Source of the DNA: a virus
Taxonomy: Duplodnaviria > Heunggongvirae > Uroviricota > Caudoviricetes
Length of the DNA: 64,000 nucleotides
Strand: one strand, 5' to 3'
IMG/VR virus record: IMGVR_UViG_3300031867_000016
Span: 27,293-91,292 of that record
The notes below the pieces were generated by a model. The model saw only the letters and a program-made list of their open reading frames with translations. It was not told the DNA's origin and did no database searches. This document shows positions 388 through 39,068 of this stretch, in pieces. Each line of letters starts with the position of its first letter. Position 1 is the first letter of the stretch. Position numbers and translations under genes: made by a program.

Positions 388-456
388 ATGCAGAATGCGT
401 CAGGCAGTTGCTGCGTGCAAGTCGTGGCTTCTGCATAATAATGGAGTGTGATACTT

Positions 457-12400: not shown

Positions 12401-15400
12401 CTCGTGGCAAATCGCTTAGATATAACAATTATCTTTCAAACATGCTGGAAGGTGGAGCATCTGGAGATGCATTCTTTGGCGAAGTTGCTTCTGCTCTTGG
12501 TGGGAGTTGGACTGCTGATCTCGTTAAAGAAAACAAAGGCGAAGCAAAGAAGCAGCTAGATAATATGAAAGATACTTCGAAAGAAGCTATTAATACTCTT
12601 ATTTCTAGTGTAATTGGTGAAATAGCAGAGCTCAAAGGTGTTAAGCTTGATATTGATACAGAAAACATTGTTGAAATATTAAGAAATACCGGAAACGAAT
12701 TAGCTTCAAAGCTTGCTAATTACATCGAAGCTATGGGTAATGTTGATATTGGAGCTCCAGAAAAAACTCTGGGTAACATTGCTCAGGAAACCAGAGATAG
12801 AGCTATGCAAGGATCGAACTATTATAAATATGGTCTTGCTTCGGAATTGCATAAGGCTGGTATAAGCATATATGATGAAACTGGTGTAGGAAAGTTTATT
12901 ACAGACAATCCAGAGTATTCAAAAGATGCTGTAGAAAGCCTGCTTGGTGATAGTGACTTTGTTCATATTACTGATGCTGCTTCTCGTGGTGTTATAAGCG
13001 GAGAAATGTATGATAAATATTTGTCGACCATGCAAAGCGGTCACGGTAATATGAATGATGTATATATGAATGCATTAGATCATATTTTCGGAGTTGGCGA
13101 ACAGGGTACATTCCTACGGAATTTTGAATCTGCGTCTCCAAAAGAGGCAATGTCAATGATTAATGAACTCCAAGTTCCAGATTACAGCTGGATTATGGAT
13201 TGGATTAACTCTCTCAATGGAGGCAAAGATGCGCTAGATAATATTGCGGCTGGAGGAGAACAAGCAGCAGAAGGCATAAAGCAACTTACAGCAGCTATGA
13301 AATTAGATGCAGCCGAAGCTGGAAGCGCAAAAAATGAACTAGTCGAAATAACTAATATTATTAATGATCTTAAAAAAGGTGGTCAAGATGCCGGTAAAGC
13401 AGTAGGCCAGCTTTCAAAAAAAGTTAATGATGCATACGACAAAGTTCTTGCTTCAGGTAAAATTCGCGGTAAATCAGGTAAAGAAGTTGACAAGACAACA
13501 AGGGGCATCATTGGAGAATTTCTTGGGGTATCTGATGATAAACAGATTCAAAAAATGACAAAAGAACAAATGAATCATGTTGCAGATCTTATGGAAGCTT
13601 CTGGAAAAGATGCGATTGACAATGGTTTTGTAAAAACTTTTGAAGATGAATTGATGTCAGCTCTTAATTCGCTTGATCCTGGATCAAAACAGTATGAATT
13701 GGTTAACAGTATTTTGTTAAAAGCTGTTGCCGATGGACAGATTGATACATCTGAACTTGAACAGGTTATTGCTGCTCTTCAGAATGATGTTCTTAGTACA
13801 ATGTATGCTGCAGCTGGACCAATAGGTTCACTTATGTTAAGCATTTTTGCTTCAACAAATTCTATTACAGCTGCACTACAGGCAGGTGGAAGACTTGGTT
13901 CTGCGCTTCTCAGTGGAGCAAAAGCCAATGTGAAACTTAACACTGGTAAAAACGCTAAGTATCAAAGTCATGGCGGCGGTGGCGGCGGAGGTGGCGGAGG
14001 AAAAGAGGAATCCGCCGCACAGAAGCTTGTCAAGCGTGTAAACAAAGGTGATGAACTCTTTGAATATCAGCGCAAAATGATTCAGTATAACCAGACAAGA
14101 TATGAAAATCGTGGCGAATTACAGAGATACGGTGCCGAACTTCAGAACGAGATTGATCTCGAAAAAGCTTATCTACCTGTTCTCAAACAGAACATTGATG
14201 CAATGATGACTCAACTCAAAAGTACCAGCAAAGGTTCAGAAGACTGGTATACTCTTCGTGAAGCAATCTTTAAAGTCAGAGAAGAGTATTCTGATATTAC
14301 TAATACCATTGAAGAGAACACCAAGAAACTCAAAGAGAATGAGGATGCAATTAGACAGACTCGTACTAATCTTGAGGATATGGTTAAAGGAGTAATTGAG
14401 GAGCGTATCCAAAAACAAAGAGACATGCTCGCCGGTACTGTTGATATTCAGGGCTTAATACTTGACGCTATAAAGCAGAGATATCAGGATGAATGGGATC
14501 TCATTAAGAAAGACATTGAGAAGAAGAAAGAAGCTCTTGAACAAGAGAAGTCTCTCATAGACGAACGTCTTAACAAGCGCAAGTCTGCAGCTGATGAGGC
14601 TAAGAAATATGAAGAGCTTGCTGAGATGAAAGATCAGCTTTCAAGAATTTCAATGGACAGTACCAGGACAAAGGACGCTGCAGCTCTACGTGAACGCATT
14701 TCTGAACTCGAGCAAGAGATTGGTTGGGACATTGCTGATAAGCAGGCTGAAGCCGAAAAGCAAGGCATTGACGACCAAATCAAAGCTTACGATGAGCAGA
14801 TCTCTGAAGGCGACGAAGATCTTGCAGCATTCCTTGAGGATGCAAACAACTTCAGCGAAGAGATTACAAAAATTCTTGAGATGAATCATGACGATCTCTT
14901 TGCGTGGCTGAGAAATAATGTTGATGAATTCAAAGATAGTCTTGATGAAGCACAGCAGCAAATGATCGACAGCTGGAATGATACCTACAAACAAATGTAT
15001 GGCATCACTGACACGTATTGGGATGAAATCGATGCTATTCTCAAAAGTAAAGATACATTTATTGCTGAAATGATGAACAGTGAAGAGTACAAGAATGCTT
15101 CTGATACAGAAAAGGAATCTCTTCTTTACAAATATGATCAAGACTGGGAAAGTTACTACAATGCATATTTTAAAAAGCCAGGAGATGTTTGGGGTTGGAG
15201 CTCTGATCAATTTGGTGACTGGTCTGGTTCAGAATATGCCGGCGCTGGTGGCGGCGGTGGTAGCGGAGGAGCAGCTAGTTCTGGCGGTGGGCCTGGCAAT
15301 AAGAAACCTGAAGATGAATTATTGTATTATGCTGTCGATGAGCGCGGTAATTTAATATCTTATGGTTATAAAACAAAAGCAGAGGCGCAAGCTATAGCAA

Positions 15401-16026
15401 ATAGAGATCAGAGTGCAAAAGTAATGCAGTTGCATAAATCAAATGCGGCTGCAGAAGCTAAAGCAAATACAGCTGTTGGAAGTATTGTCAAAAAAACAAA
15501 GAAAGCAGCAAGTAATATAGCAAACTCTGCAGTTGGAAAAACTGTGACAAGCGCCGTACAGGGTGCTGCTTCAACAATTTCTTCAGCTGCATCAAAAGTA
15601 GCTAGTTCAATAGCGGATGCATTCAAAAAAATACTGCCATTTGATACTGGCGGATACACTGGAGATCAGGAAGGCATTGCTTACATTCACAAAAAAGAAC
15701 GCATTCTGAATCCGCAGCAGACTGAGTCTTTTGAAAAGCTGTCTCAAATTGCTGACAGTATGAACAGAACAAATATGCTTAGTAATCTGTTGAACAGAAT
15801 GGACAGCTTCTCAAGCTCCGTATCTATTCCAAAGATCATTCCAGACTTTTCACCTGCTGACTTCAAGCAGTCTACTACAACTACCATTGGTGACATTATC
15901 ATTACACTCAACGAGGCAAGACTTGAAAACGATGCTGACTACGAAATGGTTGCACAGCGTGTTGGAGAGAACTTTGTCAAAGAACTTACAAAGCAAGGAC
16001 TTGGAGTCTCTGTTTTTGGTTTTTAA
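457..16026 (+). CDS. tail tape-measure protein, ~5190 aa
   Basis: Giant ORF. The ORF track begins at GTG 448; the ATG at 457 is preceded by GGAG. A TP901/PhageMin_Tail-type tape-measure core lies at about aa 2700-3050 (…AVAKQFG…QMVTLKSDSE…ALYRQGLG…VISALGDSAATT…MQTFMSRFARIG…SQISYAFGGTRQYSN…). It is followed by a hydrophobic GGxxG segment (LSILAIPIISLLIGGVPGLVAGGLAAAGL). The rest is mostly coiled-coil/charged sequence with Gly-only linkers (G11 at ~nt 13960-14000; GGGGGSGG at ~15240). The gene lies between a chaperone-like gene and a Dit-like gene. Confidence 0.85.
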   Translation: MSEMKKTIGLEIDATLKGGELDTKLEQMFQSVQRAREGIQGMRDDLAEMPMLGDMLNAKLQTTGSLAETMERKITSLRESQDKMDDDTRAQAVENLNNTYREFSTLREMQNDASQTYGIGYAKQFAANLSKDLSGAFDRIMPQVVNMIRTKMNSGRDIDASYANAHTIEGIQIAMSKDKGLLNLLRNGLPTEAFTNGKVMDQFFGIAASQAADYHRLNAFTQKMFGVNASRVEKRSVIRSTPAEYIPESFKPSFESRGYVGKEKFRSSDKVISNDIRSQIVEALNNNPVLLKAANDAKLIQKDAQYGNQHLIENITDSQMDEFRRQAYRQLEIRGRGTGKYELARGIYSGEASDDKGPSEQLQSTIANRFQTGTTRQAVEGLVFLDRLGDKDENYVTATRGGHGQGSIIRPQRQLLDMYQIGRATPFVGGKPSIGRYDYVSVNESDITRILGLDKRGDRSKAYREMSTISLNGYDPKNKEHVDLMKRIYENGIWVDQNTGAWRLDRPMTDDGQYDSNYVQHKFHAAHRGEDGAVLRMLNADMMEQIAKTTGERAKELGLSGNFLNMYSANDAKEFGQMLEDGTYLANDASKYFDAINKMYSPSRKIENNLTGKNVAVVDFAANGFKYADGVGWVSSDYLSHAIQARGASGFKGQLMPFQGGTIRDYLVKTGLASTQMLNENGEYVEDPTGKLHYYMKSINGTDMIDVMDAQILTDASLWKNAARQFKYQDENGNWQWHSGEKINQLASKLIGEVGLSEMVDLDRESGAASLGTQLTSYLTLNPMMRKLQTEGLKKRLAELDTYEGMKKYVFSNPEADEMSAVLQDPANEWLLNTKAYRDRVDLYRQSLIHDVSTHKFVDFDNGSDYYGYIADELFGQDWRNGKTDLNKAQSVLNRWRESGYHYERDLRESGISGVPELFDMIDKNANGEKVDPAAYLGQLAQNINGQNGSGSFTNVTNSVGLFSALLQNKGEIPAAIMDTARKALNEKYGEGQYSDEDIKDILLLRKKKYTDENGKERELSNVIDFGTDERHVAYARSPSAFGAFIHGVNRAEEMRVIQNAMLANGTSNPLFNELFSAGGDPFLRQSGVYLGQDDWKDLSGADADGDRIKRITGVYAQMIQASRERADDLEEFANQVLPGEAKRIGELKLADLKTLDKIPNNVQAFLNDIERLSSEGREMGLANATALNPMQMSLDDFTANGAKFVLSAKYGNKIYDEYASTFRKNPKNPIIHGDEWYRAQTLGQNFDAYLSHEDRLFQFNDDQKDTVEKYRDNIKALRSGNFSDKTKEAIEEEQKALKSEFDKLGIFESSYGELINLKQFEGPDGRTWGMNINMPSVNMDGHISGIAAAQTAYRMGRVDLSKAESVSEAIAYMIEHSPKYAEATDEVKDYHQAYLQMFPQFSSGARGRVSEAELADLQSKRLAAQASIRNMVTARKQKDMAENGLDKYSAVFSDGTNIADYEKELLKKYHVSDNGIDVVSNLGLFGFTSRNLRESLNDQGYSFFFNDPNTRLVKRNQTMMQQMQEAEQVREDELSERERIIQEGLNSFEADANGKQDTQAAAKANQEANNAEAKASQAEIDAANARKDAAEARTAAANSVQSEAQAQQAQVQKSQAKQKHALDYAEYTVTRTMQWMKTDTVDDRNHPAISLDNVYHVDKDGKATKGDLAISMKPYEGNTMAEGRLHQARTEKAGHSESGADAIIGSLISHVMDDLGANHAKNGKGIAINNIRSQATTSMKKFYADHENEIKALGITFDNDDLFSNTGLSHFHYSGTDDRLGKKIGMLSADNMASYFVDDILGIKAIKTKNDEARRIVSTEGKIYGKRGKVLNESTMVAGPSGGEKEIAYTLPGIKNSKGEDVVTRFAPDYVVQNKEDKLIIGDHKSSDSGTKKGLLQTLIYASWLDDLAEQYHRSYNATTKTYERKDLEAYGQFGSIDGNGKYVTNIAGVETRDFFSRAGYMRRYSPEDRTRFKTLIRDAQDSKYLEALDDYAAYGLQSIPEPTAENNPTVAKMSDRQRNALMQQYQMLSQRYAGYEDFARSFHSGMMQEVYRDREGTYADNYFSQKTGMRNAVVRQSEELQKAYQNFLDQSGMKDDSGLLGKLNQDILDANEAFSAGTRAWSENRSIKLLENAENFSLRKTDPFYKQREEIDKQRNNVTEMESAIDNFILSRINRSNYVTDENGKVIGINENGNTVNIRDAKLVSQEDTDTVSSMKTRLESLKTTADENIQLINDQIERDVDKQIADMQEASDSVTKTHQTSGQQRKNYWDKRKRKLNDSVKDMTLARDAIDKMLEDTETYKEDDPKRKQLERLRDQYNKSIGQESEYLNNGGFDKDRQDDLEAQRISRFNKLRHYFSGTRESAVAQMVSTGMLAMKDLDNRGDTFNVGNQFYQGMTRMLDESIGTERTKYANFVDDLSRAGNMSAEERINRNYQNKRIQSLASIRQMQQEAIDLDRMLDTGKDLEGREIFSPDDNSATTQGIKDRIKEYRDFLKDVSKQAQEALDKTLPDQKDRDVARALEDIKAQNEMQADRYQYGANQIQRSEAARRRQLDMHLSGSHSVFRQELEWRRSQYDNATSRRESYSLRQKQLDAERTKLQRQLDDDNANGKKLSAEKRTGIENQLNAATAEYNALGDAIDRAKQEQEEFGASGQEAAAALTVIGTKISAVAKQFGARIWRKAIQETMQFVQQYDAAMTEIQMVTLKSDSEIANIGKGLINSAVEMKAPIADVTSAATALYRQGLGDEEVQTRLEDVIKFSTTAGVKAADAVKLITVSLSSGLVESSTEAMDVISALGDSAATTAAEITKGLQKSVYAAKDVGVTYQELVSMLTAITAGTQLGGNVAGTAMQTFMSRFARIGTNEITYDEDGNEISGSNLATALRAVGIETYKNGSRRDFTEVLRELSSQWGSLSDARRSQISYAFGGTRQYSNLNALLTAFGEKDENGQTAIDKYLDITGKSAGVTDEKYTHYTESLAASVTNLKNSFDGLIESLTNTGVLTGFLDFISSAIQGATQLSESLGSLGGVISSLSILAIPIISLLIGGVPGLVAGGLAAAGLSTIYASINAANNKPSLSNYAAAKSKVSSEQTLIDEKVQRAKELNGLRDKDGNLSEENNIQLKKTLAELSDMGALSLDASTSIESLASSAANTAKALDSVSASSKTLSDKQKQELWNGLVADIKNDKDKFSEIQQETIISDEEKTKAREAINSFSPEKGLAALSIMKDITPVIGAIDWTGFGNVVQKVGSNEYTTVSQMSNDEIARAFTQYLRYHRSPNEKERLSVEQYAGIYDKISGVIGGAKTDTKDEVKFGDYYKDKISAAVKDMLTGSLEDDEIQQVVGAIVKDLNEGKSIDDVNVLDYASSVIRNAGKKTSSTNLKAIADLTYSMSEEGKKKTQGQRFDRLYKALAISGAPVQTWLNSMKLDANSALFNSYMSDPNVAKAFSEMVDESGNYNGNQKAYQNFLNTIAAASNYYGSSVYTSNKQMSSNAFGAFTKRRRGINVSELGPEYSESEMKTILGDELFSEFVSGNWAHAGEMRRRIEAYGVGLPAYTDYQNATAATRVLNNGAADFSNTRLQEIYQTIPELQEYLAVQGYSEQKRSNLGYSDNWLENQRSIIEKRINEIETSSKILESAYSDISTNVANGFSMTAYAPDALSTYGDLISQYDNFAETQRSLNRLKSNSYNEEDLQRLASQTGVNIRASNASNESIKKNVEAAFNVQLDNYVNGITEGLETLIPQSALDTLTEGMNADDIVSALQDAGVKLNDWAINAIKDLGLVFQNGKFVPNADGLTDAFGDAIKGMLEGVSNSNTASSTALNAVKQAVLMGGGVAGYKDYLNTNYKNVDISALSSNAQNILGMYENGLSSANTSTLLEYESSPYRTKGSDYYKAYLDFYNANKNNDDMLNSTYMQNAQSILSSLDGWQEYVDTGNMDKLNAAIELAGSNKYTDAYSQFATYLTQFYGTQSQQNELMTSMFARGKSLRYNNYLSNMLEGGASGDAFFGEVASALGGSWTADLVKENKGEAKKQLDNMKDTSKEAINTLISSVIGEIAELKGVKLDIDTENIVEILRNTGNELASKLANYIEAMGNVDIGAPEKTLGNIAQETRDRAMQGSNYYKYGLASELHKAGISIYDETGVGKFITDNPEYSKDAVESLLGDSDFVHITDAASRGVISGEMYDKYLSTMQSGHGNMNDVYMNALDHIFGVGEQGTFLRNFESASPKEAMSMINELQVPDYSWIMDWINSLNGGKDALDNIAAGGEQAAEGIKQLTAAMKLDAAEAGSAKNELVEITNIINDLKKGGQDAGKAVGQLSKKVNDAYDKVLASGKIRGKSGKEVDKTTRGIIGEFLGVSDDKQIQKMTKEQMNHVADLMEASGKDAIDNGFVKTFEDELMSALNSLDPGSKQYELVNSILLKAVADGQIDTSELEQVIAALQNDVLSTMYAAAGPIGSLMLSIFASTNSITAALQAGGRLGSALLSGAKANVKLNTGKNAKYQSHGGGGGGGGGGKEESAAQKLVKRVNKGDELFEYQRKMIQYNQTRYENRGELQRYGAELQNEIDLEKAYLPVLKQNIDAMMTQLKSTSKGSEDWYTLREAIFKVREEYSDITNTIEENTKKLKENEDAIRQTRTNLEDMVKGVIEERIQKQRDMLAGTVDIQGLILDAIKQRYQDEWDLIKKDIEKKKEALEQEKSLIDERLNKRKSAADEAKKYEELAEMKDQLSRISMDSTRTKDAAALRERISELEQEIGWDIADKQAEAEKQGIDDQIKAYDEQISEGDEDLAAFLEDANNFSEEITKILEMNHDDLFAWLRNNVDEFKDSLDEAQQQMIDSWNDTYKQMYGITDTYWDEIDAILKSKDTFIAEMMNSEEYKNASDTEKESLLYKYDQDWESYYNAYFKKPGDVWGWSSDQFGDWSGSEYAGAGGGGGSGGAASSGGGPGNKKPEDELLYYAVDERGNLISYGYKTKAEAQAIANRDQSAKVMQLHKSNAAAEAKANTAVGSIVKKTKKAASNIANSAVGKTVTSAVQGAASTISSAASKVASSIADAFKKILPFDTGGYTGDQEGIAYIHKKERILNPQQTESFEKLSQIADSMNRTNMLSNLLNRMDSFSSSVSIPKIIPDFSPADFKQSTTTTIGDIIITLNEARLENDADYEMVAQRVGENFVKELTKQGLGVSVFGF

Positions 16027-16086: not shown

Positions 16087-17154
16087 ATGCAAGGTGGCTT
16101 TAGCTTTTGCGGTGTTGACATTGCAGAGTTTGGCATGGAATATGTGCCGCCATTGCAGTCAACATATGTATTTGGTAACGGTGGCTACCAGATAAACGAA
16201 CAGACCTATGAAGGCCATCACGGCGGCTATTACTATGGAGCAACAGTGCCGCCAAAAACTTTCAGCTTGCGATGTATGTTTGAAGACAGCGAAATAATAC
16301 GCGGTAATTTGACTCGCCTCGAAGGCTTCTTTAATATCGGAAGAACTGGAAGACTCATATTCGACAATAGAGACTGGCTTTACTATACCGCAACTGTTGT
16401 TTCGGTATCAAAGCCAGAGCTTACTAACAGAAGAAACGGTTTCGTAACGATAGGGTTTAAGGCATATTATCCGTTTGGCAGATGCGACAAAATGTATCTG
16501 ACTCATGACGGTATGTATGATTACTGGTTAGCGGATAACAGCGGCATTATGGAAGAGGATCTGACCCCTGTGATGTCGTTTGCAAATGTTACAAAGGAAC
16601 AGAATATTCTTCTGTATAATGGCGGCACAGCGCCAGCTTCAGTGGCTGTCGCTGTTGCCGGCAATGCTGGTGAAGGCATTACAATTACCAACAACACCAA
16701 CAAAACAAAGATGAAGCTTATCGCATTTGACCGTTCAGTTACGACTGATAAAAACGGTACAGTTATATGCGATGGACTCAGTCATAAGACTATATTAAAA
16801 AATGATGATAAGACAGAAATGAAGTTTATATATCATGACTACGGCTTCATTACTCTCGAACCATCATGTCCAATACGAAGAGATGTATACATAGATACCA
16901 AGCTGAATTCAGCTGAGGTGTACGGCTTTAACCTGTTTAATCCAAGTATGGTTGGCTACTATATACATCTCGAAGGTGAATGGAAAAAGATTAAGGCTAT
17001 CAAAGACAACAGCACTGCTGTTTTGGAAAAACCTCTGCAGCTTACAGACTCTGTAGTTACAAACATCGTAAAGATGAATGAGATAACTATAAGCCCTGAT
17101 GTAGGCTGCGAGCTTGATAAACTTGAATTTATATATAAGCCTACGTTCATATAA
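16087..17154 (+). CDS. distal tail protein (Dit, siphovirus tail-family protein)
   Basis: 355 aa. The N-terminus (FSFCGVDIAEFGMEYV…) fits the Sipho_tail/Dit pattern. It lies immediately downstream of the TMP. RBS is aaggcgg. Confidence 0.6.
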   Translation: MQGGFSFCGVDIAEFGMEYVPPLQSTYVFGNGGYQINEQTYEGHHGGYYYGATVPPKTFSLRCMFEDSEIIRGNLTRLEGFFNIGRTGRLIFDNRDWLYYTATVVSVSKPELTNRRNGFVTIGFKAYYPFGRCDKMYLTHDGMYDYWLADNSGIMEEDLTPVMSFANVTKEQNILLYNGGTAPASVAVAVAGNAGEGITITNNTNKTKMKLIAFDRSVTTDKNGTVICDGLSHKTILKNDDKTEMKFIYHDYGFITLEPSCPIRRDVYIDTKLNSAEVYGFNLFNPSMVGYYIHLEGEWKKIKAIKDNSTAVLEKPLQLTDSVVTNIVKMNEITISPDVGCELDKLEFIYKPTFI

Positions 17155-17175: not shown

Positions 17176-20100
17176 ATGGCTCTCAGCAGAGTATTGCATT
17201 TAAACCTATATGACTATTCGGGCAATAAGCTTTGCCCACTATATGACAGTTATTCTTCTGCTCCCGGCGACGCCGTTAACGTCATCATCCAGGATGAACG
17301 TAACGGCTGGCGGGAGCTTTATTTTGATCTTCCTACCGTTGTTCAAACGCAATATGGAACGATAGATAATTTCAGAATTGATTTCCTGAAAGCAGAATAT
17401 CTTATTGAAGCAATTGAAGAAAAGGGTACTGACTGGTTCTTTATCTCTCAGCCTAAAATTGTACACAATGCTTTTTCAAAGACACTGTCCGTTACATCTC
17501 CTCACATTTCTCAGTGGCTCAAGTATAAAAACCTTGGGCTGGAATTCTCTGACAATGAAGGTAACAATGTTGGAACAGCTAAAGAACTTCTTACTACTAT
17601 TCTTGAAGGCACAGGCTGGGAAGTTGGAGAGGTGTATAACTTCGCCGAGAAAGACGGTTCTACAAAATACAGATCTCTTAAAGCTTCATCCAAGACAGGT
17701 GCATTCAAACTTATCACAACGATGTGCGAACTCTTTGATGCAAGACCTGTATTCCATGGCGATACAAGAAAGGTAGACATCGTTCCGCTCAACCCGTTCT
17801 CTGAAGCAGAGCCTGGAGAAATTCAGAAGTATGCAGAAAAGAATGGAGTGCTGGAACTTCATTACGGATCGGCTCTCAAGAATATTACGCGTCTTGTCAA
17901 TACAGAAAACATAGTGACAAAACTCTATGCCTACGGAGCATACGGTGACAAAACATCAGGCTACTGTGCCATAGATGAATGTACTCACAATGAGTACACT
18001 TTTACTACAAATTCCGCGCTTGAATCTGGACATGAGTATTTCTTCGAGGTTAATGATACAGCTGGCAAACCAGTGAATTATTCCTTCACAGTTACAGAGA
18101 ATTTGGAAGCTGGAACAGTATTTATCTTCTCGCAGCTGGATCCGTGTTCCATGTCGTACATCTGGAGAGATACAGTTCTCGAAGGAGAGGGGCATGGCAA
18201 GGCTTACTTCGTTAAGAAAGGTAAGTCAGGCGAAGCTCTTGATGTAGAGATAACATCTGAACCCGAAGTACCGAACTGGTTTGGTTTTCTTCTGGACTTT
18301 GATTACTACATCGAAGTCGGTCTGTTCAGTGATGACATGCTGCAGAAGGTGGCTCTCTATCAGAGAGAGGCACCGCAGTATTACAAAGCAATATCTGAAG
18401 CATCCAAGACAATGTCTGACGCTGTGACTGAACTCAGCAAGACAGCCGGCGTATTTCCATACGCACGTCTTGCTGTCAAGAGAAAAGAACCTCTTCTTGG
18501 TGACGGCTATCTGACTCTTGTTCTGGACTATGAGAATTATGATCAGGGTGTATTGTATCGCTCTGACTTTGATGCCAATGTTGATACACGTTTCAAATGG
18601 ATTGTCACAGATGAACTTATGCCGAATGGTGATCCAGTGAATTCTGGCTGCTCAAGACTTTACATTGTTCATCCTGCTGACACAGGCAAGCCTATGACAT
18701 GGGATGTTCTCTGTCTCAAGAAAGTCATGGACGATCTTGTGAATCCGAAAGCTATTACACTGTGGGCTGACAAGGATGAGATAGAGATAGATGTAAGCAG
18801 AGATAAATTTTATCTCATGCAGAGTCTCAGCACAGCTGGTTATCTCGGCTACCTCGAAGCAAGAGACGAAGCAATTATGCAGGCTCTTGAAGACACAACA
18901 ACGATTGCAACCAATACGCATGAGGTTGTCTTCACAGACAAGAGTCCAAACAGCATTACTCCGCCAGTATCTGGCTCCAATGATGATCTGCCTTTTCCTT
19001 CTCCAAGAACAAATTCATATGGCTGGCTGTGGAGATACTATCCTATAAAGAATGAGGAAGGGAAATACCGCGAGTCAGACTTCTACTTCTGCAACACATC
19101 TTATGATGGCAACGAATGGAAGAAGGTTCACTTCTCCGATACAATGCCAGAAGATGCAAGCATCCAGTACTGGTACAACTGGAGAAAGAATACATTATCC
19201 AGAGCAGAGTTCAATACAGAAACTCAGGATCTCAACTGGAACATACTTACTGGGTACACAGACGAAAAGATCGCAAGCTACTTTGGTACAGTGTATTACT
19301 TTGGCAAAGCAAGAGACCGTGTATATCAGGGAGTAAACCGCAAGCAGATCTATGAGCTTGATGTAAACGAAACTCTGCCTGCCGGCAATTATTATTTTGA
19401 AGATGGTTATGGCAGCTATTGGGTATTCACAATTAAAGCTCCGTTGACTGGTCCAAATGCTTCCTTATCGTATGACGCATACGATAACTGGCTTACAATT
19501 AACAGAGATGGGATTACAGAATCTATCAAAGGCAAATCATACAGATTCGATTCGGTGAAGTATCATCCAGACAACATCATCAAGTCTCTTGCAAATACAC
19601 AGGGTTATATCAGCGAGAAGAACGGTGACATCGAAACCAGCTATAACATAACCAAGTATGAAAACTGCTGCTACACAAACGGCTTTACTCAGGTGTATCC
19701 AGATACAAAATACACGCTGTCCGAAGTTCCAAGCAATTCCTATATTCATTTCTACAATGACAAGAAGAGATGGATAGGCATGAAGCAGATAACAGACAAT
19801 ACGTTTGAGACTTCTGCTGACTGCTTCTATATCAGATTCAGTGCTGTGATCTACAAGAATTCTGAAGATCAAACTTCTTTGTTCAACTTGGACAATCTAG
19901 TTATAACCGTGACTCAGCCATTCGGTTCGTATATCGGAACATACGATAACACAATTGTTATCAGTGATATGACATATCTGAAGCTCAATGTGAATAAACA
20001 TGAAGGCGAAGTTATTGGTCTTATTGACGCAATGGAAAAATTCACAACTGGTTCAGATCATGTGTATCAGGAATTATATGTACAACTAAAGGAAGCACAG

Positions 20101-22740
20101 GATGCTGTCAAGGATCTTGAAAACAGAATGACATCTTCAGTTGGGGATATCTACAGGGAAGGCTACTGGCAGGATGCAAGTTATGTTGACGGTGATGAGA
20201 AGAGACTGTATGACGATGCAATTGAAAACATCGAAGAGATCTCAAAGCCAGACATAACATACAGCATAGGTTTCCTTGATCCATATTCTTCCAACGAAGA
20301 GAACATGGATTACGGTGCATCGGAAGAAAGTATTAAAGTTCCGTACACAGATGTAGATATTTCAACTGCTGTGCATCTGGTAGATCCAGAACTCAACATC
20401 AACTGCTGGGCTTATATTGACAAGCTTAGAAAATGTTACGACAAACCATGGCAGGATACTATTGAAGTCAATACAAAGCTTTCCACCATTGGTCAGCACA
20501 GCTTCACTGATGTCATGGCAAATATTGCCGATGTTGCCAGCGAAATGAAAGGCAAGAGCAGCAAGTACGATAACGCTGCAAACAAAGCTATTGCCGGTGT
20601 TGCTGTCAACATTGTCTCTCCGAACATCTCAGTAACTGAGCAATCCTTATCGTCCATCTATCAGCGCATTGAAAACATCGACAACAAAATTATTACCCAT
20701 GAAACCAGCATTACTCAGAATGCTGATGAGATAAGCAGTGAAGCAAGACGATCCATTGAATCAGAAGCTGAACTGTCTACGAAAATTACTCAGACAGCTG
20801 ATGATATCAAGACTGAACTCTTCGGTGTAAACGGTGATGGCAAGATCATACAGAGTTCTGAGGAATTCTCTTCGGTTTATCAGAACAACTACAACTATAA
20901 AGTTAATAAAGATCTGATTGAAACTGCACAGGACTTAAATGAAAAGAGAGTCGCATCAATACTTAATGATGCAAAGACAATCAATGATAAGAGAATTTAT
21001 AAATTAAAAGACAGAGCTATAGAGCTTAACCTTTCGAGAGATGAAGAAGGTAAGTTGTCTGAGAAAGACTCTAAAGAGTTAATTGATATTCTCAACCAGT
21101 TCAATGCATTCGGCCTTATTGACAGCGCTCTCTTGACTATTCAGGTTCCTGTTGTAGTAGAAGAACCGGGTACAGATGAGACTGGGGAATCTGGCAGCGG
21201 AGAAGGTACAGGCACTGGCGATAATCCTGGCGACGAAGAACCTGTTCCAGAAGAACCTGAACCTGTTCCTGAAGATCCAGATCCGTCAGGAGGATCTGAT
21301 GAACCAGATCCGAGTGAGGACGATCCAGCACCAATCGAAATCAGACAGCTTAACATTGAAGAAGCAGTCGAGTACAAAGACGTAGTTGCTGCAGTGCTTG
21401 ACAGTATAGACGAGAATGTATGGCTCGACGTTAGTGACGAAGGATTGCTTATTGCACGTCTTGAACAGCTTAAAACTGCAGGACTGATAGACGAAAGCGT
21501 TGATCTTACACAGCTTGTTAAGGTAATGAACGATGTTACCAATGCTATCAAAGATATAAGCAATGATGCTTTCGAAGATCCGCTTAAACGAGCAGAGCTT
21601 ATCGATACATTAACACAGCTTAAAGATGCAAAGGTTATCAGCGACGAAGTAGTTATCGAGGATATTGTTGATAGCAAAGAAGCTGTTGTGTCAGTTTTGA
21701 ATAAGATCCCTGTTTCTGAATACGAATATTTGATGAGCTCAATGAAGCAGACAATGTATGGCTTGTACTTGAACATCTATGGAACTGATGCTGAAGGTCA
21801 TATCATCACAACAGCTGACGAATTCAGATCTGTTTTCGAATCTGCAGACAGAGACCAGCGAACTAAAATGACGCAGACTATCTATGGTATGACAAACATT
21901 GTTGAGTCGAGTAACGGTATGACAATGATTGATCAGGACGACAGGTCTATTTCTGCTATTGTCAGAGGTATAAACTCCGATCCAAATGGTAAAAACAACT
22001 TCAATACTAGTGCAATCAGCATAAGCGATAAATCAATAAGCGTTTCAAGTACTGGAGAAATAAATATATCCGCAGGCGGAGCGTTCACTGTTGATACTGA
22101 AAACTTTGACTTAACAAAGGATGGCAGGCTTACTACGAACGAAGCTGTTCTTACCAATGCAAAGATTTATGGCGATATCTATAAGAATGGTTTCCCTGTA
22201 ATTGCGCTTGGAGAAGATATTATTGTTTCGCAGACACAGCCAGAAGGTGTGTATGGTCGAATCTGGATTAAACCAAATCCAAATTCTGGTTCTGGATCTG
22301 GTAGCGGATCTGGCAGCGGAACAGACACAACAAAGACTGGTACGGTAAAGTATACTGGTTCTTATTCCTTTGGTATAAGATCTTATGACAATCTTAATAC
22401 TCTTAACGTAACTCTTTCCGGTACAGGCTTCGCTTCTAATTCAACTAACTGTACATACAATGTAAGGTTTGACTTCTTTATGCCTTCGTCGGAAGGAAAG
22501 AAAACTCCAGGTGGCGGTAAACTTATTGTTACATTGGCTGGTGCCATCTCTGAAGAAACTGAACTGTATACTGGCGCTGGAAGTAAGAGTGTCAATCTTA
22601 CATTCAATTCTTCAAAATGGATTGGCACAGGCAGCACTATGAATTTCAGAGTAAGTGTATCTGGTGTTCGTGGTTATAACTGTACGTTCCTGAATAATGC
22701 ATTCTCTTCCAACATTACTGTCACATGTACCGCTAAATAA
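17176..22740 (+). CDS. tail-tip protein (Tal, prophage-tail N-terminal domain) with long C-terminal extension
   Basis: 1854 aa. The N-terminus (LYDYSGNKLCPLYDS…) resembles the Tal/prophage endopeptidase tail N-domain. Strong RBS aaaggagga. The C-terminal part has an acidic Pro/Glu linker (EEPVPEEPEPVPEDPDPS) and a (GS)n linker. Confidence 0.65.
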   Translation: MALSRVLHLNLYDYSGNKLCPLYDSYSSAPGDAVNVIIQDERNGWRELYFDLPTVVQTQYGTIDNFRIDFLKAEYLIEAIEEKGTDWFFISQPKIVHNAFSKTLSVTSPHISQWLKYKNLGLEFSDNEGNNVGTAKELLTTILEGTGWEVGEVYNFAEKDGSTKYRSLKASSKTGAFKLITTMCELFDARPVFHGDTRKVDIVPLNPFSEAEPGEIQKYAEKNGVLELHYGSALKNITRLVNTENIVTKLYAYGAYGDKTSGYCAIDECTHNEYTFTTNSALESGHEYFFEVNDTAGKPVNYSFTVTENLEAGTVFIFSQLDPCSMSYIWRDTVLEGEGHGKAYFVKKGKSGEALDVEITSEPEVPNWFGFLLDFDYYIEVGLFSDDMLQKVALYQREAPQYYKAISEASKTMSDAVTELSKTAGVFPYARLAVKRKEPLLGDGYLTLVLDYENYDQGVLYRSDFDANVDTRFKWIVTDELMPNGDPVNSGCSRLYIVHPADTGKPMTWDVLCLKKVMDDLVNPKAITLWADKDEIEIDVSRDKFYLMQSLSTAGYLGYLEARDEAIMQALEDTTTIATNTHEVVFTDKSPNSITPPVSGSNDDLPFPSPRTNSYGWLWRYYPIKNEEGKYRESDFYFCNTSYDGNEWKKVHFSDTMPEDASIQYWYNWRKNTLSRAEFNTETQDLNWNILTGYTDEKIASYFGTVYYFGKARDRVYQGVNRKQIYELDVNETLPAGNYYFEDGYGSYWVFTIKAPLTGPNASLSYDAYDNWLTINRDGITESIKGKSYRFDSVKYHPDNIIKSLANTQGYISEKNGDIETSYNITKYENCCYTNGFTQVYPDTKYTLSEVPSNSYIHFYNDKKRWIGMKQITDNTFETSADCFYIRFSAVIYKNSEDQTSLFNLDNLVITVTQPFGSYIGTYDNTIVISDMTYLKLNVNKHEGEVIGLIDAMEKFTTGSDHVYQELYVQLKEAQDAVKDLENRMTSSVGDIYREGYWQDASYVDGDEKRLYDDAIENIEEISKPDITYSIGFLDPYSSNEENMDYGASEESIKVPYTDVDISTAVHLVDPELNINCWAYIDKLRKCYDKPWQDTIEVNTKLSTIGQHSFTDVMANIADVASEMKGKSSKYDNAANKAIAGVAVNIVSPNISVTEQSLSSIYQRIENIDNKIITHETSITQNADEISSEARRSIESEAELSTKITQTADDIKTELFGVNGDGKIIQSSEEFSSVYQNNYNYKVNKDLIETAQDLNEKRVASILNDAKTINDKRIYKLKDRAIELNLSRDEEGKLSEKDSKELIDILNQFNAFGLIDSALLTIQVPVVVEEPGTDETGESGSGEGTGTGDNPGDEEPVPEEPEPVPEDPDPSGGSDEPDPSEDDPAPIEIRQLNIEEAVEYKDVVAAVLDSIDENVWLDVSDEGLLIARLEQLKTAGLIDESVDLTQLVKVMNDVTNAIKDISNDAFEDPLKRAELIDTLTQLKDAKVISDEVVIEDIVDSKEAVVSVLNKIPVSEYEYLMSSMKQTMYGLYLNIYGTDAEGHIITTADEFRSVFESADRDQRTKMTQTIYGMTNIVESSNGMTMIDQDDRSISAIVRGINSDPNGKNNFNTSAISISDKSISVSSTGEINISAGGAFTVDTENFDLTKDGRLTTNEAVLTNAKIYGDIYKNGFPVIALGEDIIVSQTQPEGVYGRIWIKPNPNSGSGSGSGSGSGTDTTKTGTVKYTGSYSFGIRSYDNLNTLNVTLSGTGFASNSTNCTYNVRFDFFMPSSEGKKTPGGGKLIVTLAGAISEETELYTGAGSKSVNLTFNSSKWIGTGSTMNFRVSVSGVRGYNCTFLNNAFSSNITVTCTAK

Positions 22741-23218: not shown

Positions 23219-23262
23219 TAAAAAAAATGGGGTCTGCCTTTTTCGGCAGACCCCATTTTTAT
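23219..23262. terminator. bidirectional intrinsic terminator at the convergence of the + strand tail operon and the minus-strand ardC gene
   Basis: Stem atggggtctgcc / ggcagaccccat (12 bp), flanked by an A-run on the left and a T-run on the right. Confidence 0.7.
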
Positions 23263-24110
23263 TCTTCATCCTGTTCGTTAAGTATCAGCTTAACAGCTTT
23301 CTCTGCTCTGCCGGCTGCAGTAACGATCAGTTTCTTGTCTTTCTTCAAAGCATTAAGCCAGCCAGAGATATAGGCGGCATTATTATTGAAGCTGCTCTCA
23401 GTTTCCAAGCCGACATGATTGACAAGCATTGCTGCTCCAAGTTCAGCAACGAGTTCTTCTTTGCTGTAAACTTCGTTGCCAAAGTGAGCGTCTTTATCAA
23501 GCCTATTGAGTCTGGATACGTGACCAGTGGAATGCGTGAGTTCATGAAACGCAGTGCTGTAAAACTCCGCTGTATTCTCGAACTGTGTGATAAGAGGTAT
23601 CACTACAGTGTCAGTAGAAGGGGAGTAGTATGCATCTCTGCTTTCACACTTGATTAGCGTAACTCCTGAATTTGTGATGTAATTTTCTATTACTTTCTCG
23701 GCTTCTTCATCGGGTGAAGCAGAACCCACTTGTACATCTAGATCGCTAAATCGAGGTTTAATTCCTTCACATTGTAAGAGATTGAAAACATTATAGTAGC
23801 GAAGGAAAGGAATGTATTTTATTTCGCCAGTTTCTTTGTCTACTTCTTCGAGGAATTTCCAGAAGATAACGATCTTACTCTTTTCTCCTTTGCGAACATG
23901 ACCGCCTTCTTCTACGCACTGTTTAAATGTTACGTATTCTCCGGGCTGTCCATCCAGACACATCTGATTCAGAAGACTGTATGGTTTTCCAGTAACATGA
24001 GAGATTGCAAGATTGCTCCCGCCTTTCCATGGCTTGTGCCACGGCACAACGCCGGTTTCCATAGTTGCAATAATTCTATCTGCAACCATACTGTAGACAT
24101 CCACACCCAT
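23259..24110 (-). CDS. ardC: ArdC-like antirestriction protein (N-terminal ssDNA-binding domain plus C-terminal zincin-like HExxH metallopeptidase)
   Basis: N-terminal region VVPWHKPW…GKPYS…N fits the ArdC N-terminal/DUF1738 pattern. C-terminal region contains FHELTHSTGH. The start was moved to the internal ATG (MGVDVY…), which is preceded by aaggat. The ORF track extends to 24158. Confidence 0.75.
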   Translation of the reverse strand: MGVDVYSMVADRIIATMETGVVPWHKPWKGGSNLAISHVTGKPYSLLNQMCLDGQPGEYVTFKQCVEEGGHVRKGEKSKIVIFWKFLEEVDKETGEIKYIPFLRYYNVFNLLQCEGIKPRFSDLDVQVGSASPDEEAEKVIENYITNSGVTLIKCESRDAYYSPSTDTVVIPLITQFENTAEFYSTAFHELTHSTGHVSRLNRLDKDAHFGNEVYSKEELVAELGAAMLVNHVGLETESSFNNNAAYISGWLNALKKDKKLIVTAAGRAEKAVKLILNEQDEE

Positions 24111-24141
24111 AATAAGTATCCTTTCTATAATATATTTGCGA

Positions 24142-24176
24142 TAAAAAAAGGCTAGCATTTTCGTGCTAGCCTTTTC
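24142..24176. terminator. hairpin terminator (probably bidirectional) between attP/int and ardC
   Basis: A-run, stem aggctagca / tgctagcct with loop ttttcg, then T-run. Confidence 0.55.
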
Positions 24177-24259
24177 AGCTGCTTATGAAAAAATTCTATC
24201 AAAAAAGTTCTTTCGTAAACAGCTGAGTGAATGCAATGGGGTTTCGTATTTTTTATTCA

Positions 24260-24306
24260 AGGTCTGCAAAACCTTCACTCCCCAGTTCAAATCTGGGTGG
24301 CACCTC
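24260..24306 (+). other. 3' half of tRNA-Cys(GCA): anticodon arm, variable loop, T-arm, 3' acceptor strand and U discriminator, with no 5' half. Predicted attP core.
   Basis: aaggt-ctGCAaa-acctt forms the anticodon stem-loop, with U33, GCA and A37. cccag-ttcaaat-ctggg forms the T-arm. tggcacc plus t gives the acceptor 3' strand and U73, the Cys discriminator. The sequence is close to Bacillus-type tRNA-Cys. The upstream 60 nt contain no D-arm or 5' acceptor. The integrase gene ends 72 nt away. Confidence 0.6.
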
Positions 24307-24377
24307 GAATCCATTGGTATATCTGCGTTTGCGGACAGGCATGGCGCAGATTTTTTAGTGCAGACCTTTACCCTGAA

Positions 24378-25367
24378 TTAAAAGCATAACGCCGCATACA
24401 TGGCGTCAAATCCATCGCCGTACAGATGAATGTATGTATTGTATGTGACCTGTACAGAACTGTGTCCCATCAATCGGCTAAGGATCTTTACGTCAATGCC
24501 TTTATAATAACAGTTGGTTGCAAACGTGTGTCTGAAGACATGTTCTCCGTAGTAGGGGATATTGTTTTCCTGACACAGTTTTTTAGTTTGATACACAAGC
24601 TTCTTGTAAGTGTAGCGCTCTCCGTCCTGCTCAAACACCCATTCGGTTGTACGCTTAAGCTGCAGTGTTTTCAGCAGCAGCAAAGCTTTTGGTGTGAGAG
24701 GAATGGTTCTATTGCTCGCCTTACTTTTGGGTGAATCCTGATAAGTGCTCTTATTTGTCGCATGTGGATTGATGATCGTGGCATGTATTCGCAGCCGGCA
24801 TCTTGATATATTTACATCGGACCATTTGAGAGCAAGCAGTTCTCCGCTTCGAATACCTGTTTCGATCATGAACAGCATCGCAACATACCCGGCATTATCC
24901 ATGTTTTCTTTTACGGCCTTGGTAATGATTGCCTGCTCCTCTTCAGTGTACGCAATTATTTCTTTTGTCTGCTTCTCAAGTATCTCTACCTTTGGATACT
25001 CTATCCCTATAGATGGATCAGCCGGTATGAGCTTCATAGAAGCTGCTCTCTTCAAAGGTGCTGTCACGATCTCAACTTGTTTCTTGATCGTGCTCATACT
25101 GTAATTCTGTTCAACCAGCCAGTTCAAATAAGCTTGAACATCGAACAGATTGATATCACGGATAGGTACCTTTGCCAGAGGATGGCTTGCGAATGTATTG
25201 CGACTCTGAACAAGCCTTGCGAATGTTGCCTTCTTAACAGAATTCTTTTTAAACAGTTCAAGCCATGTATCAATAAAGTCAATCAATACTGTATTTGAAT
25301 CCACTCTGAGTTCCTCCAATCGAGAAACCCCATTGCGGACATCAGTGTACATATTTAATTCAGACAT
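24378..25367 (-). CDS. int: tyrosine site-specific integrase (phage integrase family)
   Basis: 329 aa. The C-terminal catalytic region contains HVFRHTFATNCYYKGIDVKILSRLMGHSSVQVTYNTYIHL (R…H-x-x-R…Y). The N-terminal part resembles a SAM-like core-binding domain. RBS is gaggaa. Confidence 0.9.
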   Translation of the reverse strand: MSELNMYTDVRNGVSRLEELRVDSNTVLIDFIDTWLELFKKNSVKKATFARLVQSRNTFASHPLAKVPIRDINLFDVQAYLNWLVEQNYSMSTIKKQVEIVTAPLKRAASMKLIPADPSIGIEYPKVEILEKQTKEIIAYTEEEQAIITKAVKENMDNAGYVAMLFMIETGIRSGELLALKWSDVNISRCRLRIHATIINPHATNKSTYQDSPKSKASNRTIPLTPKALLLLKTLQLKRTTEWVFEQDGERYTYKKLVYQTKKLCQENNIPYYGEHVFRHTFATNCYYKGIDVKILSRLMGHSSVQVTYNTYIHLYGDGFDAMYAALCF

Positions 25368-25385
25368 GTCAATTCCTCATTGCAT

Positions 25386-25428
25386 TAAATGGGAGCTGCC
25401 TTTGTTTCGGCAGCTCCCATTTTTTTAT
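25386..25428. terminator. strong hairpin (14-bp stem) upstream of int; likely terminator/insulator between the early genes and int
   Basis: aaatgggagctgcc / ggcagctcccattt with a T-run on the + strand. Confidence 0.5.
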
Positions 25429-37790: not shown

Positions 37791-39068
37791 TTATGCAACA
37801 TTTCGCGGTGCGTAGAAGCGTCTTTTGTGTTCAGCCTGTCTGTCTTCAGACCATTTCGACACACGAGTCAGATAGCCGATAACCCTTGTTGCATAGTCCA
37901 GGTTATCAGAACCGCACTCAGGACACTCATTCAGCTTATGCTTGCTGATATGCCCACAATTGTTACAGACTGTGTTGGGAATATTGAATGTAAAGTAGTT
38001 GCAACCAGTCTTAATAGCATATTTAAGCAGTTGCTCGTACTGTGCTTTGCTTAAATGCTCTTCGAGATTGCAGTGCAGAGCAGAACCACCATCGAGATAC
38101 TGAGTAAACTCTTTGCCATGCAGCTGGAACTTATCTATCGGGTTTGTCTTTTCATCTTCTACAACATAGAAATAAGAGTTGTAGCATGGACGAGGTACAA
38201 CATAACCATCAGCTTTATCCCACTTAGCATTCTTTACGCCAAGGTTTTCTGCCGGCACAAATTCTGTATTAAACATAGCATCCTTTGTCTTGTCTGCTTT
38301 GTTTAATTCATAGATCGGCTTAAGAATAGAATTGATGTATGCTTTGTAATGATCATTATTTGAGATCTCGATGCCAAGATATTCAGCGCCTTCGACTGCA
38401 CCATTGATTCCAACAGTCAAATACTCTTTTTCAGGGCTGATAAAGCCAGCATCATAGATCGAAATCATATGTTTGCGAGTCATATCGAGAAGTATCTCAT
38501 TATATGCTGTGAGATACATATGAATAAGTTTTGTCTGTTCTGCTACAGCATATGAGATATCTTCAAGGTTCTGATCAAAATTGCTTTCGCTTCTGATTTC
38601 ACTTATGTCTTCTTCTCCATGCTGACATCCCATCAGATCACACATTCTATTCTGCACAAGACGATTTACATTTATCGTCATAACACATTTGCTGCCAGTA
38701 GCGATACCGCCAGCGCCGAGCGTATAACTGAACTGGTTCTCTGTAATGCCGTTGCGAAGTCTGCAGCATGATGCAAGACTGTCAACACTGTCACTAACGT
38801 AGGTGAAAAAACTGTGACCTTCCGCATACATTTCAGCTGCGAAGTCTGCCCATTCCTTATCGGCAAAGTCATCACCATGACTCAGCAGAGACAGAGTTTC
38901 AACAGGGAAGGTGAGAATGCACCTGAGTCTTTCGGCATTGAACCATTTCATAAACTTCTTCTGAAGCCAGCTTACAGATTCCCACTGCATGGTGGTGCCA
39001 TCTGGAAATACAAAGTCTTCGAACAGACTATTGAAATAGTACTTGTCGAAGTAGGCTACATTCCAAAA
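37791..39068 (-). CDS. nrdD: anaerobic ribonucleoside-triphosphate reductase NrdD, 3' exon (C-terminal part with Zn ribbon and glycyl-radical region)
   Basis: The C-terminus contains CNNCGH…CPECG followed by RVIGYLTRV (glycyl-radical loop). The reading frame is open upstream of the annotated ATG, up to a TAA at 39072-39074 (…KFWNVAYFDKYYFNSLFEDFVFPDGTTMQW…). The exon boundary is approximate. Confidence 0.6.
   Translation of the reverse strand, partial: FWNVAYFDKYYFNSLFEDFVFPDGTTMQWESVSWLQKKFMKWFNAERLRCILTFPVETLSLLSHGDDFADKEWADFAAEMYAEGHSFFTYVSDSVDSLASCCRLRNGITENQFSYTLGAGGIATGSKCVMTINVNRLVQNRMCDLMGCQHGEEDISEIRSESNFDQNLEDISYAVAEQTKLIHMYLTAYNEILLDMTRKHMISIYDAGFISPEKEYLTVGINGAVEGAEYLGIEISNNDHYKAYINSILKPIYELNKADKTKDAMFNTEFVPAENLGVKNAKWDKADGYVVPRPCYNSYFYVVEDEKTNPIDKFQLHGKEFTQYLDGGSALHCNLEEHLSKAQYEQLLKYAIKTGCNYFTFNIPNTVCNNCGHISKHKLNECPECGSDNLDYATRVIGYLTRVSKWSEDRQAEHKRRFYAPRNVA

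Follow-up and report, generated by a model that had tools for sequence, protein, structure and literature searches.

Carrying a copy of tRNA-gene sequence at attP is a standard device that allows a phage to insert without destroying its target gene. Among the phages whose crossover lies in the anticodon loop are mycobacteriophage L5 (tRNA-Gly), Haemophilus HP1 (tRNA-Leu), and Salmonella P22 (tRNA-Thr), and the integrases of all three have an N-terminal arm-binding domain and use arm-type sites. In phage λ, the target is intergenic, the core is 15 bp, and Int is heterobivalent, with arm sites. For elements that target tRNA genes (tDNAs), integration splits the gene and the element restores it; a 3' fragment is displaced in the process. 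In the Islander collection of 3919 islands, 3760 have such a 3' tDNA fragment, and attP is anticodon-centred in 2083 (PMC4383910). Anticodon-centred sites constitute Islander class "A" (Williams 2002, as cited in PMC4383910). In Enterococcus phage phiEf11, the integrase gene ends ~74 nt from an attP core of 27 nt, and the target is ffs (4.5S RNA) (PMC12540744).

The site considered here lies within a window of 64,000 nt, which is the whole stretch of phage DNA that was analysed. As in Islander class A, a tyrosine integrase stands beside an attP whose tRNA-gene sequence starts at the anticodon stem and comprises the rest of the gene on the 3' side; there is no difference in kind, and the particulars here are a 112.8-kb phage of uncultured Clostridia and a predicted tRNA-Cys target. 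With L5, HP1, and P22, the present phage has in common a block of identity that stretches from the anticodon arm as far as the tRNA 3' end, an adjacent int gene, and a symmetric stem that would supply the core sites. It differs from them in having an integrase without a detected arm domain and, on the int-proximal arm, a further half-site that resembles the core. The likeness to phiEf11 extends to the distance from int (~74 versus 72 nt), to a core that is identical to part of a small structural RNA gene, and to a Firmicute host, whereas phiEf11 uses ffs with a 27-nt core and the window phage would use tRNA-Cys with a block of 47-49 nt. The likeness to λ lies in the kind of recombinase (tyrosine), in the position of attP next to int, and in a terminator past attP on the int strand (24138-24176). 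The features of the region are collected in Table 1. Very probably, the site is the attP of a temperate siphophage that integrates into the tRNA-Cys(GCA) gene of its host, most likely by an exchange in the anticodon loop.

Table 1. Features in and around the proposed attP, in window coordinates
Feature	Position	Strand	Remarks
Strong intrinsic terminator, int strand, beyond the core as seen from int	24138..24176	-	
GCAATGGGGTTTC, candidate regulatory or arm-type site, int-distal arm	24233..24245	+	13-nt perfect inverted repeat; with the third copy, repeats I7 and I14
attP identity block, 3' 47 nt of tRNA-Cys(GCA)	24259..24305	+	Host identity to 24306, in one host to 24307
Predicted attP core: anticodon arm, inverted half-sites around the loop	24259..24275	+	Homology edge, L052/L053 split, common GGTCTNCAAAACCTT
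Anticodon stem AAGGT/ACCTT	24259-24263 and 24271-24275	+	
Anticodon loop CTGCAAA	24264-24270	+	Anticodon GCA, U33, A37
Variable loop CACTC		+	
T stem CCCAG/CTGGG, T loop TTCAAAT		+	
3' acceptor strand TGGCACC		+	
Discriminator T (U73)	24305	+	
Hairpin with run of six U's, candidate intrinsic terminator	24321..24356	+ (tRNA-sense)	
Candidate accessory motif AGTGCAGACCTTTACCC	24356..24372	+	Inverted copy of core AAGGTCTGCA
Tyrosine integrase, 329 aa	24378..25367	-	PF00589 7.7e-25, PF13102 1.1e-5
GCAATGGGGTTTC, inverted copy	25324-25336		Inside 5' end of int
AATGCAATGAGG, third copy, 92%	25375-25386		Just upstream of int start

The 47-mer at 24259-24305 (+), AAGGTCTGCAAAACCTTCACTCCCCAGTTCAAATCTGGGTGGCACCT, occurs once in the 64-kb window, and a control with 100 shuffles produced 0 matches when up to three mismatches were allowed. 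It corresponds to positions 27-73 of tRNA-Cys(GCA) and thus comprises the anticodon arm, the variable loop, the T arm, the 3' acceptor strand, and U73. A first-pass annotation, made from the letters of the sequence, had described the attP core as the 3' half of tRNA-Cys(GCA) lacking the D arm and the 5' acceptor strand. The 47/47 match to positions 27-73 of host genes upholds this description; of the coordinates, the 47-mer is correct, but its true start is at 24259, one base to the left of the 24260 that had been given. In the DNA 5' of the fragment (..GTATTTTTTATTC), which is unrelated to a D arm, neither that arm nor a 5' acceptor strand is present. Furthermore, ARAGORN, which the annotation had named as a check, with a complete tRNA-Cys as the result that would count against it, found 0 complete tRNAs in all 64 kb. 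Rfam gave no tRNA match in the window. A low-threshold Rfam scan of 24100-24500 returned matches at chance level, with no tRNA call, and is uninformative either way because half a tRNA scores too low. The minimum-free-energy fold of the fragment consists of its two hairpins, but its energy is ordinary (z = -0.72), so folding by itself is no evidence for a tRNA fragment. The decisive evidence for a tRNA origin is the 47/47 identity to tRNA-Cys(GCA) genes in 10 genome loci.

These loci come from an exact-match scan of a collection that holds one genome for each of 185,579 species. The 47-mer was found on 10 contigs, each time inside a tRNA-Cys(GCA) gene, which is where the search proposed in the annotation had been expected to find attB. 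ARAGORN called a complete tRNA-Cys at eight of the loci; at the remaining two, the gene runs off the end of the contig. Every one of the contigs belongs to a MAG of the class Clostridia (Bacillota), several of them from a rumen series, and the labels that they carry are Oscillospiraceae, Ruminococcaceae, Aristaeellaceae, Faecalibacterium sp., or unclassified Clostridia/Clostridiales. The prediction of a Firmicute host thus holds, but the gene is not "Bacillus-like", as it had been called; the matching genes are of the Clostridia type. Most likely, to judge from the matching gene sequences, the host is an uncultured gut or rumen member of the Clostridia with the same tRNA-Cys variant, mostly of the kind represented by the Oscillospiraceae and Ruminococcaceae MAGs. 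Where the host cluster is complete, the tRNA genes are in the order Val-Asp-Phe-Gly-Cys, with tRNA-Cys last and an intrinsic terminator directly after it.

The identity between host and window spans 48-49 nt. Its left edge lies exactly at position 27, with 0 nt of extension to the left (host ..GGCA|AAGGT versus phage ..ATTC|AAGGT), and its right edge lies 1-2 nt past the discriminator. When 8-kb host loci were compared with the whole 64-kb window, this block was the sole similarity. The 10 genome matches are all plain attB, none of them (0/10) being an integration junction, and the exact 47-mer has 0 matches in IMG/VR viral contigs. A comparison of the 22-27 kb DNA with GenBank phages yielded a single match, to a tRNA-Cys gene on MT838312, an unverified 5.4-kb "bacteriophage" contig; it was rejected as a phage relative, since the contig is probably bacterial.

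On the left of attP are genes for a tape-measure protein of 5192 aa in which a PhageMin_Tail domain is recognized, for Sipho_tail (Dit, the distal tail protein), and for a 1854-aa Prophage_tail protein (Tal, the tail-associated lysin), as well as an ArdC-like gene. On the right are int, many small early-type ORFs, NrdD, a SpoIID/NlpC-P60 lysin, and a 2364-aa protein, and past the right end of the window lie Pol III alpha, DnaB/primase, and a PD-(D/E)XK nuclease. Phage genes are therefore present on both sides of the site, tail genes to the left and early-type genes to the right, as had been reported. An independent assembly, contig k141_4588186 of ENA ERZ27256863 (112,917 nt), matches the window at 100% identity in the three stretches compared (L135, L136, and L138). 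Its last 141 nt are the same as its first 141 nt, and both of its ends map to adjacent window positions, 47097-47237. The contig closes as a circle of 112,776 bp with no host flank and with no host genes in the parts read. This closure indicates that the genome is in its unintegrated form, in agreement with the first-pass annotation. In a second sample (Logan SRR9036512), the gene order around attP is unchanged. The phage is most likely a temperate siphophage of ~113 kb with a circular genome, and deposited phage genomes include no close relative of it.

The integrase combines a PF00589 (Phage_integrase) domain with a SAM-like N-terminal domain (Pfam), and exactly 72 nt separate its stop codon (24378-24380) from the fragment, which is the spacing that had been noted. 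Its homologues number 913 at E <= 1e-40, and in an alignment of 16 of them, R173, H276, R279, H302, and Y312 are invariant. In a Pfam search at E <= 0.01, no arm-binding domain was detected, the SAM-like and catalytic domains being the only ones found, and just 27 residues precede the SAM-like (core-binding) domain. The protein thus lacks the N-terminal arm domain by which lambda-type heterobivalent integrases are recognized. The best match among deposited phage genomes, in Brevibacillus phage Emery, is 27% identical. No excisionase was identified for the phage. The integrase would be expected to catalyse recombination between attP and attB.

Related loci were sought in viral contigs, public assemblies, and metagenomes, a sampling biased towards viral contigs; their integrases are 38-80% identical to that of the window. 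In ~45 of them, a truncated 3' fragment of tRNA-Cys adjoins int. The first 28 loci all (28/28) have the fragment beside int and no full tRNA-Cys, and later ones are likewise; in essentially all loci of the tRNA-Cys type, a hairpin and T-run of different sequence follow the fragment at the equivalent place, on the tRNA-sense strand. This recurrence, which fits the Islander rule, supports the view that the arrangement is the classic one of an attP carrying a 3' tRNA half. The left edge of homology in the relatives falls at the anticodon stem, between approximately positions 24 and 31, whereas in the window it is exactly 27. The fragments vary from phage to phage as host tRNA-Cys genes do, for example with TTCGAAT or TCCGAAT as the T loop, and this parallel indicates that each phage probably tracks the tRNA-Cys variant of its own host. 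Two loci, L031 and L046, also carry tRNA-Ile and tRNA-Leu genes.

In a sample so biased towards viral contigs, the tRNA-Cys-type loci comprise ~45 unintegrated and one integrated. The integrated locus, L040 (integrase 42% identical), is at the start of a 74-kb viral contig, where tRNA-Gly(GCC), a complete tRNA-Cys, a terminator, and int on the opposite strand follow one another. The Gly-Cys order is that of the host MAGs, and the unintegrated loci L046-L048 have a tRNA 3' half identical to that of L040. Integrated relatives also exist for other targets. Four loci with integrases ~50% identical (L055, L057, L058, and L061) have a complete antisense tRNA-Trp(CCA) 57-60 nt from int, with non-phage-like DNA beyond it, while L053 and L062 have just a 3' fragment of tRNA-Trp. 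Relatives with integrases ~30% identical lie ~140 nt from complete tRNA-Glu(CTC) genes. In these sister clades, the distance to the complete tRNA is therefore 57-140 nt, in the same convergent geometry as in the Cys type, and the int-proximal junction with a complete tRNA is represented by L040 for Cys, by L055, L057, L058, and L061 for Trp, and by many loci for Glu.

The sister pair L052 and L053 bears on where such junctions form. The two have a common int-proximal arm and split right after ...GGTTTTGGAGACC, the 5' edge of the anticodon stem; past the split, L052 continues into tRNA-Trp (attL) and L053 into phage DNA (attP). In addition, contigs L026 and L036 end exactly at ...TTTTGCAGACCT, the attP boundary, and the first bases of host contigs L019 and L015 lie 1 and 7 nt ahead of it. 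Such breaks suggest that attP and integrated forms coexist in a sample. The tRNA-Cys and tRNA-Trp arms share GGTCTNCAAAACCTT and are set apart by a single base, the first of the anticodon. A rough neighbour-joining tree of the integrases places Trp-type members among Cys-type members, a reading that extends only to this nesting, as the tree has no support values.

The DNA between the fragment and int contains two elements of interest. The segment 24306-24362 folds at -19.9 kcal/mol (z = -2.8) and includes the hairpin at 24321-24356, which a simple terminator scan missed because of an internal loop and which was found by folding instead. Between this hairpin and int, at 24359-24368, is the accessory motif TGCAGACCTT (also AGACCTTTA), which forms with 24259-24268 of the core (AAGGTCTGCA) a 10-nt perfect inverted repeat (I16). 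In most Cys-type relatives the motif is ATAAAGGTCTT, and in one Trp-type locus it is ACAAAGGTCC. Its distance is fairly fixed, at 55-71 nt past the tRNA 3' end in most relatives, and the bases that flank it track those of the variable loop. In L130, where the cassette is inverted relative to int, the motif is still with the fragment. In sequence, the motif is akin to one half-site of the core and not to a separate arm-type site. As the integrase has no arm domain, an extra core-like half-site is a plausible accessory binding site, and the motif is a candidate for a second site bound by the integrase on the int-proximal arm.

Other repeats and a second terminator provide further leads. The GCAATGGGG repeats listed in Table 1 are candidates for arm-type sites, as a lead only. 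The terminator on the int strand (inverted repeat I10) has a 13-bp stem and a U7 run and folds at -18.5 kcal/mol (z = -4.5). Its geometry recalls λ sib, which is parted from int in the prophage, but this is a resemblance only. Because the terminator is not kept in relatives such as L034, a sib-like role in the regulation of int is a speculation retained as a lead.

Taken together, these findings suggest the following model. The 329-aa integrase would recombine attP with the tRNA-Cys(GCA) gene at the end of the host Val-Asp-Phe-Gly-Cys cluster. It would bind both inverted halves of the anticodon stem (AAGGT/ACCTT) and swap strands in the 7-nt loop CTGCAAA; the exchange is inferred to lie in this loop because the block begins at the anticodon stem, whose halves are natural inverted sites, and the arm sequence common to the Cys and Trp targets supports this placement. 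Since the phage would bring a perfect copy of everything from the anticodon stem to the discriminator, along with its own terminator, integration would rebuild an intact, terminated tRNA-Cys next to int from a host 5' part and a phage 3' part. The rebuilt gene would end at the phage hairpin 24321-24356, which would take over from the terminator of the host tRNA operon, and the accessory motif would serve the integrase as set out above. The original 3' fragment of the host would move to the far end of the prophage, and the terminator at 24138-24176 would part from int. The expected attL would be ...GGCCAAGTGGTAAGGCA followed by the 47-mer and CGAATCCATTGG, and the expected attR would be ...GTATTTTTTATTC followed by the 47-mer and the host terminator.

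The annotation had also proposed a search for prophage copies flanked by the repeat. No prophage copy of the window phage was found among the 10 genome matches, the metagenome contigs, or the contigs with the exact integrase, of which there are only two, both unintegrated. An attL-specific 63-mer had 0 matches in metagenome contigs. No contig was found with both attL and attR repeats, relatives included, and no second (attR) copy of the repeat was found on the L040 contig or on contigs with the commonest fragment variant. The search thus gave nothing for the window phage itself; an integrated relative, L040, has a complete tRNA-Cys exactly at the predicted place. As for the claim that tRNA-Cys is the integration site, the 47-mer lies, in the genome collection, only inside tRNA-Cys genes, as predicted, but the window phage was not caught in the integrated state. 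From the match between phage and host sequences, integration of the window phage into tRNA-Cys is nonetheless strongly indicated.

The small number of integrated loci bears on an improbable alternative, namely that the element exists mainly as a free or plasmid-like circle, that its integrase serves chiefly in Xer-like resolution of dimers, and that the fragment is an intact legacy of an integrating ancestor. Among the ~45 loci there is indeed no integrated copy of the phage or of a tRNA-Cys-clade relative at least 50% identical; the integrase is of Xer size and has no arm-binding domain; and the element has its own Pol III alpha and DnaB/primase, in addition to an ArdC-like gene such as plasmids and conjugative elements (ICEs) typically carry. 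However, perfect identity to the host and fragments that track host variants indicate continuing selection for integration, and integrated members do exist in the integrase family. The contigs that break off at the att edge point to the presence of both forms in samples, and the bias of the sampling towards viral contigs must also be considered. It is highly improbable, conversely, that the window is integrated after all, with the fragment being either a displaced attR or the attP-like junction of tandem prophages. A junction between tandem copies does look like attP over a short distance, the visible stretch is only 64 kb, and a tandem dimer is formally compatible with the assemblies, but the closure at 112,776 bp through terminal repeats of 141 nt, the lack of host genes wherever the sequence was read, the single copy of the fragment in 64 kb with tail genes directly to its left, and the same gene order in Logan SRR9036512 all argue for a free genome.

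Scarcely credible is the idea that the fragment is the decaying remnant of a tRNA-Cys gene of the phage, that it lies near int by chance, and that there is no attachment site here. Decay would not leave 47/47 identity to host genes, nor would it produce a truncation at one and the same tRNA position in ~45 loci with integrases as little as 38% identical. The fragment is always accompanied by int and the terminator, even in the inverted cassette of L130, and integrated relatives have a complete tRNA at exactly the equivalent place. These observations outweigh the facts that large phages often carry tRNA genes, as the relatives with tRNA-Ile and tRNA-Leu do, and that the fold energy of the fragment is unexceptional. 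The preferred reading is thus that of an attP used for integration into tRNA-Cys by exchange in the anticodon loop.

The att arrangement belongs to the commonest known class of attachment sites of phages and islands, and the general understanding of such sites is unchanged. What the finding provides is a host (Clostridia) and a temperate lifestyle for a large uncultured phage. Moreover, the exact attP and attB sequences are usable for detecting lysogens in metagenomic reads and for integration vectors in gut anaerobes that are hard to engineer. There is also a modest lead concerning integrase specificity, in that the Cys and Trp targets are one anticodon-loop base apart, the terminator is supplied by the phage, and a half-site is duplicated. 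It has been possible to combine these features in a tentative hypothesis, to which somewhat less than an even chance is given. In this hypothesis, an integrase family without an arm domain would read GGTCTNCAAAACCTT, would have switched repeatedly between Cys (N = G) and Trp (N = C), and would use a core-like half-site in place of arm sites. The carriers in that reading are ~113-kb temperate siphophages of rumen and gut Clostridia with a 5192-aa tape-measure protein. If the hypothesis is true, nature would offer in this family a compact system in which the choice of target by an integrase could be studied and perhaps reprogrammed.

The arm of attP distal to the integrase is directly adjoined by a gene for an ArdC-like protein, a type typical of conjugative plasmids; in the prophage state, this gene would lie at the far end of the element, beside the displaced tRNA fragment. 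The arms also carry a short repeat. One copy, GCAATGGGGTTTC, lies 14 nt left of the core, a perfect inverted copy lies within the first codons of int, and a third, nearly identical copy, AATGCAATGAGG, overlaps the ribosome-binding region of int. These repeats may be regulatory or arm-type sites.

Features of the window around attP, the tail genes, nrdD and the right-hand block
Feature	Position	Strand	Remarks
Tape-measure ORF	448-16026	+	Single ORF; PhageMin_Tail domain at ~residues 2730-2930
Dit	16087-17154		Sipho_tail; next after tape-measure ORF
Tal	17176-22740		1854 aa; Prophage_tail; after Dit
ArdC-like protein	23259-24158	-	ArdC N-terminal domain and zincin metallopeptidase
GCAATGGGGTTTC	24233-24245		
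Inverted copy of GCAATGGGGTTTC	25324-25336		Perfect
AATGCAATGAGG	25375-25386		Near-copy
nrdD ORF	37791-38990		Flanks group I intron
Group I intron	39121-39368	-	Rfam RF00028, 81.6 bits, E = 3.5e-19
nrdD ORF	39340-40020		Flanks group I intron
YadA-head-repeat protein	45046-46509		Same block as 2364-aa ORF
Large ORF	47718-50105		Same block; no family match
Large ORF	50118-51203		Same block; no family match
Large ORF	51744-52907		Same block; no family match
2364-aa ORF	55378-62472	-	DUF6273 domain at C-terminus

Several contigs of relatives and hosts break at or near one place. The ends of two attP-type contigs (L026 and L036), together with the start of one host contig bearing a tRNA-Cys gene (L019) and the end of another (L015), fall at the 5' edge of the block that is identical to tRNA-Cys, or no more than 7 nt from it. 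This looks like branching of the assembly graph, with attP and integrated junctions occurring together in one sample. In two other relatives, L130 (12163-13155) and L060 (~2100-2200), the cassette of tRNA fragment, terminator and motif is reversed relative to int, such that the tRNA fragment is on the strand of int; in L130, it is just 10 nt past the int stop codon. Given these two reversed cassettes, the att cassette behaves as a unit capable of inversion.

The target itself also varies. When loci L052-L062 were compared with the tRNA-Cys-type loci (L002-L011, L023-L039, L046-L051, L054, L130 and L131), the branches of a single integrase family were found to differ in target, some using tRNA-Cys and others tRNA-Trp, with the Trp-type integrases nested among the Cys-type ones. 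The anticodon arms of the two tRNAs differ solely in the first anticodon base. Remoter relatives of the integrase (~30% identity) adjoin tRNA-Glu(CTC).

Two further records carry tRNA-Cys sequence. The viral contig L042 (IMGVR_UViG_3300036800_000219, ~9053-9640) has, shortly after the gene of a distantly related integrase (23% identity), only the 5' part of a tRNA-Cys gene, up to and including the anticodon arm. It may represent the rarer kind of element that carries a 5' fragment. MT838312.1, an unverified 5.4-kb GenBank entry from human faeces named "Bacteriophage sp.", contains a complete tRNA-Cys (2432-2504) that differs from the window fragment at 3 of 49 positions. Because its match to the window is confined to this 49-nt tRNA segment, it is probably bacterial DNA.

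By assembly, the genome is a circle of 112,776 bp (141-nt terminal overlap, ENA contig k141_4588186), an unusually large size for a temperate siphophage. The phage has its own genes for Pol III alpha, DnaB/primase, ThyX, dUTPase, glutaredoxin, a RuvC-like protein and NrdD/NrdG-like proteins. A group I intron splits nrdD (anaerobic ribonucleotide reductase) into two ORFs that match profile positions 6-158 and 198-560; in phage T4, this gene is likewise interrupted by an intron. The large ORFs and the YadA-head-repeat protein of the right-hand block may form another module for structural or fibre proteins, read in the direction opposite to that of the tail genes. Finally, tails usually measure ~1.5 Å per tape-measure residue; by this rule, the 5192-aa tape measure would give a tail about 0.8 µm long, which, if so, would be exceptional.
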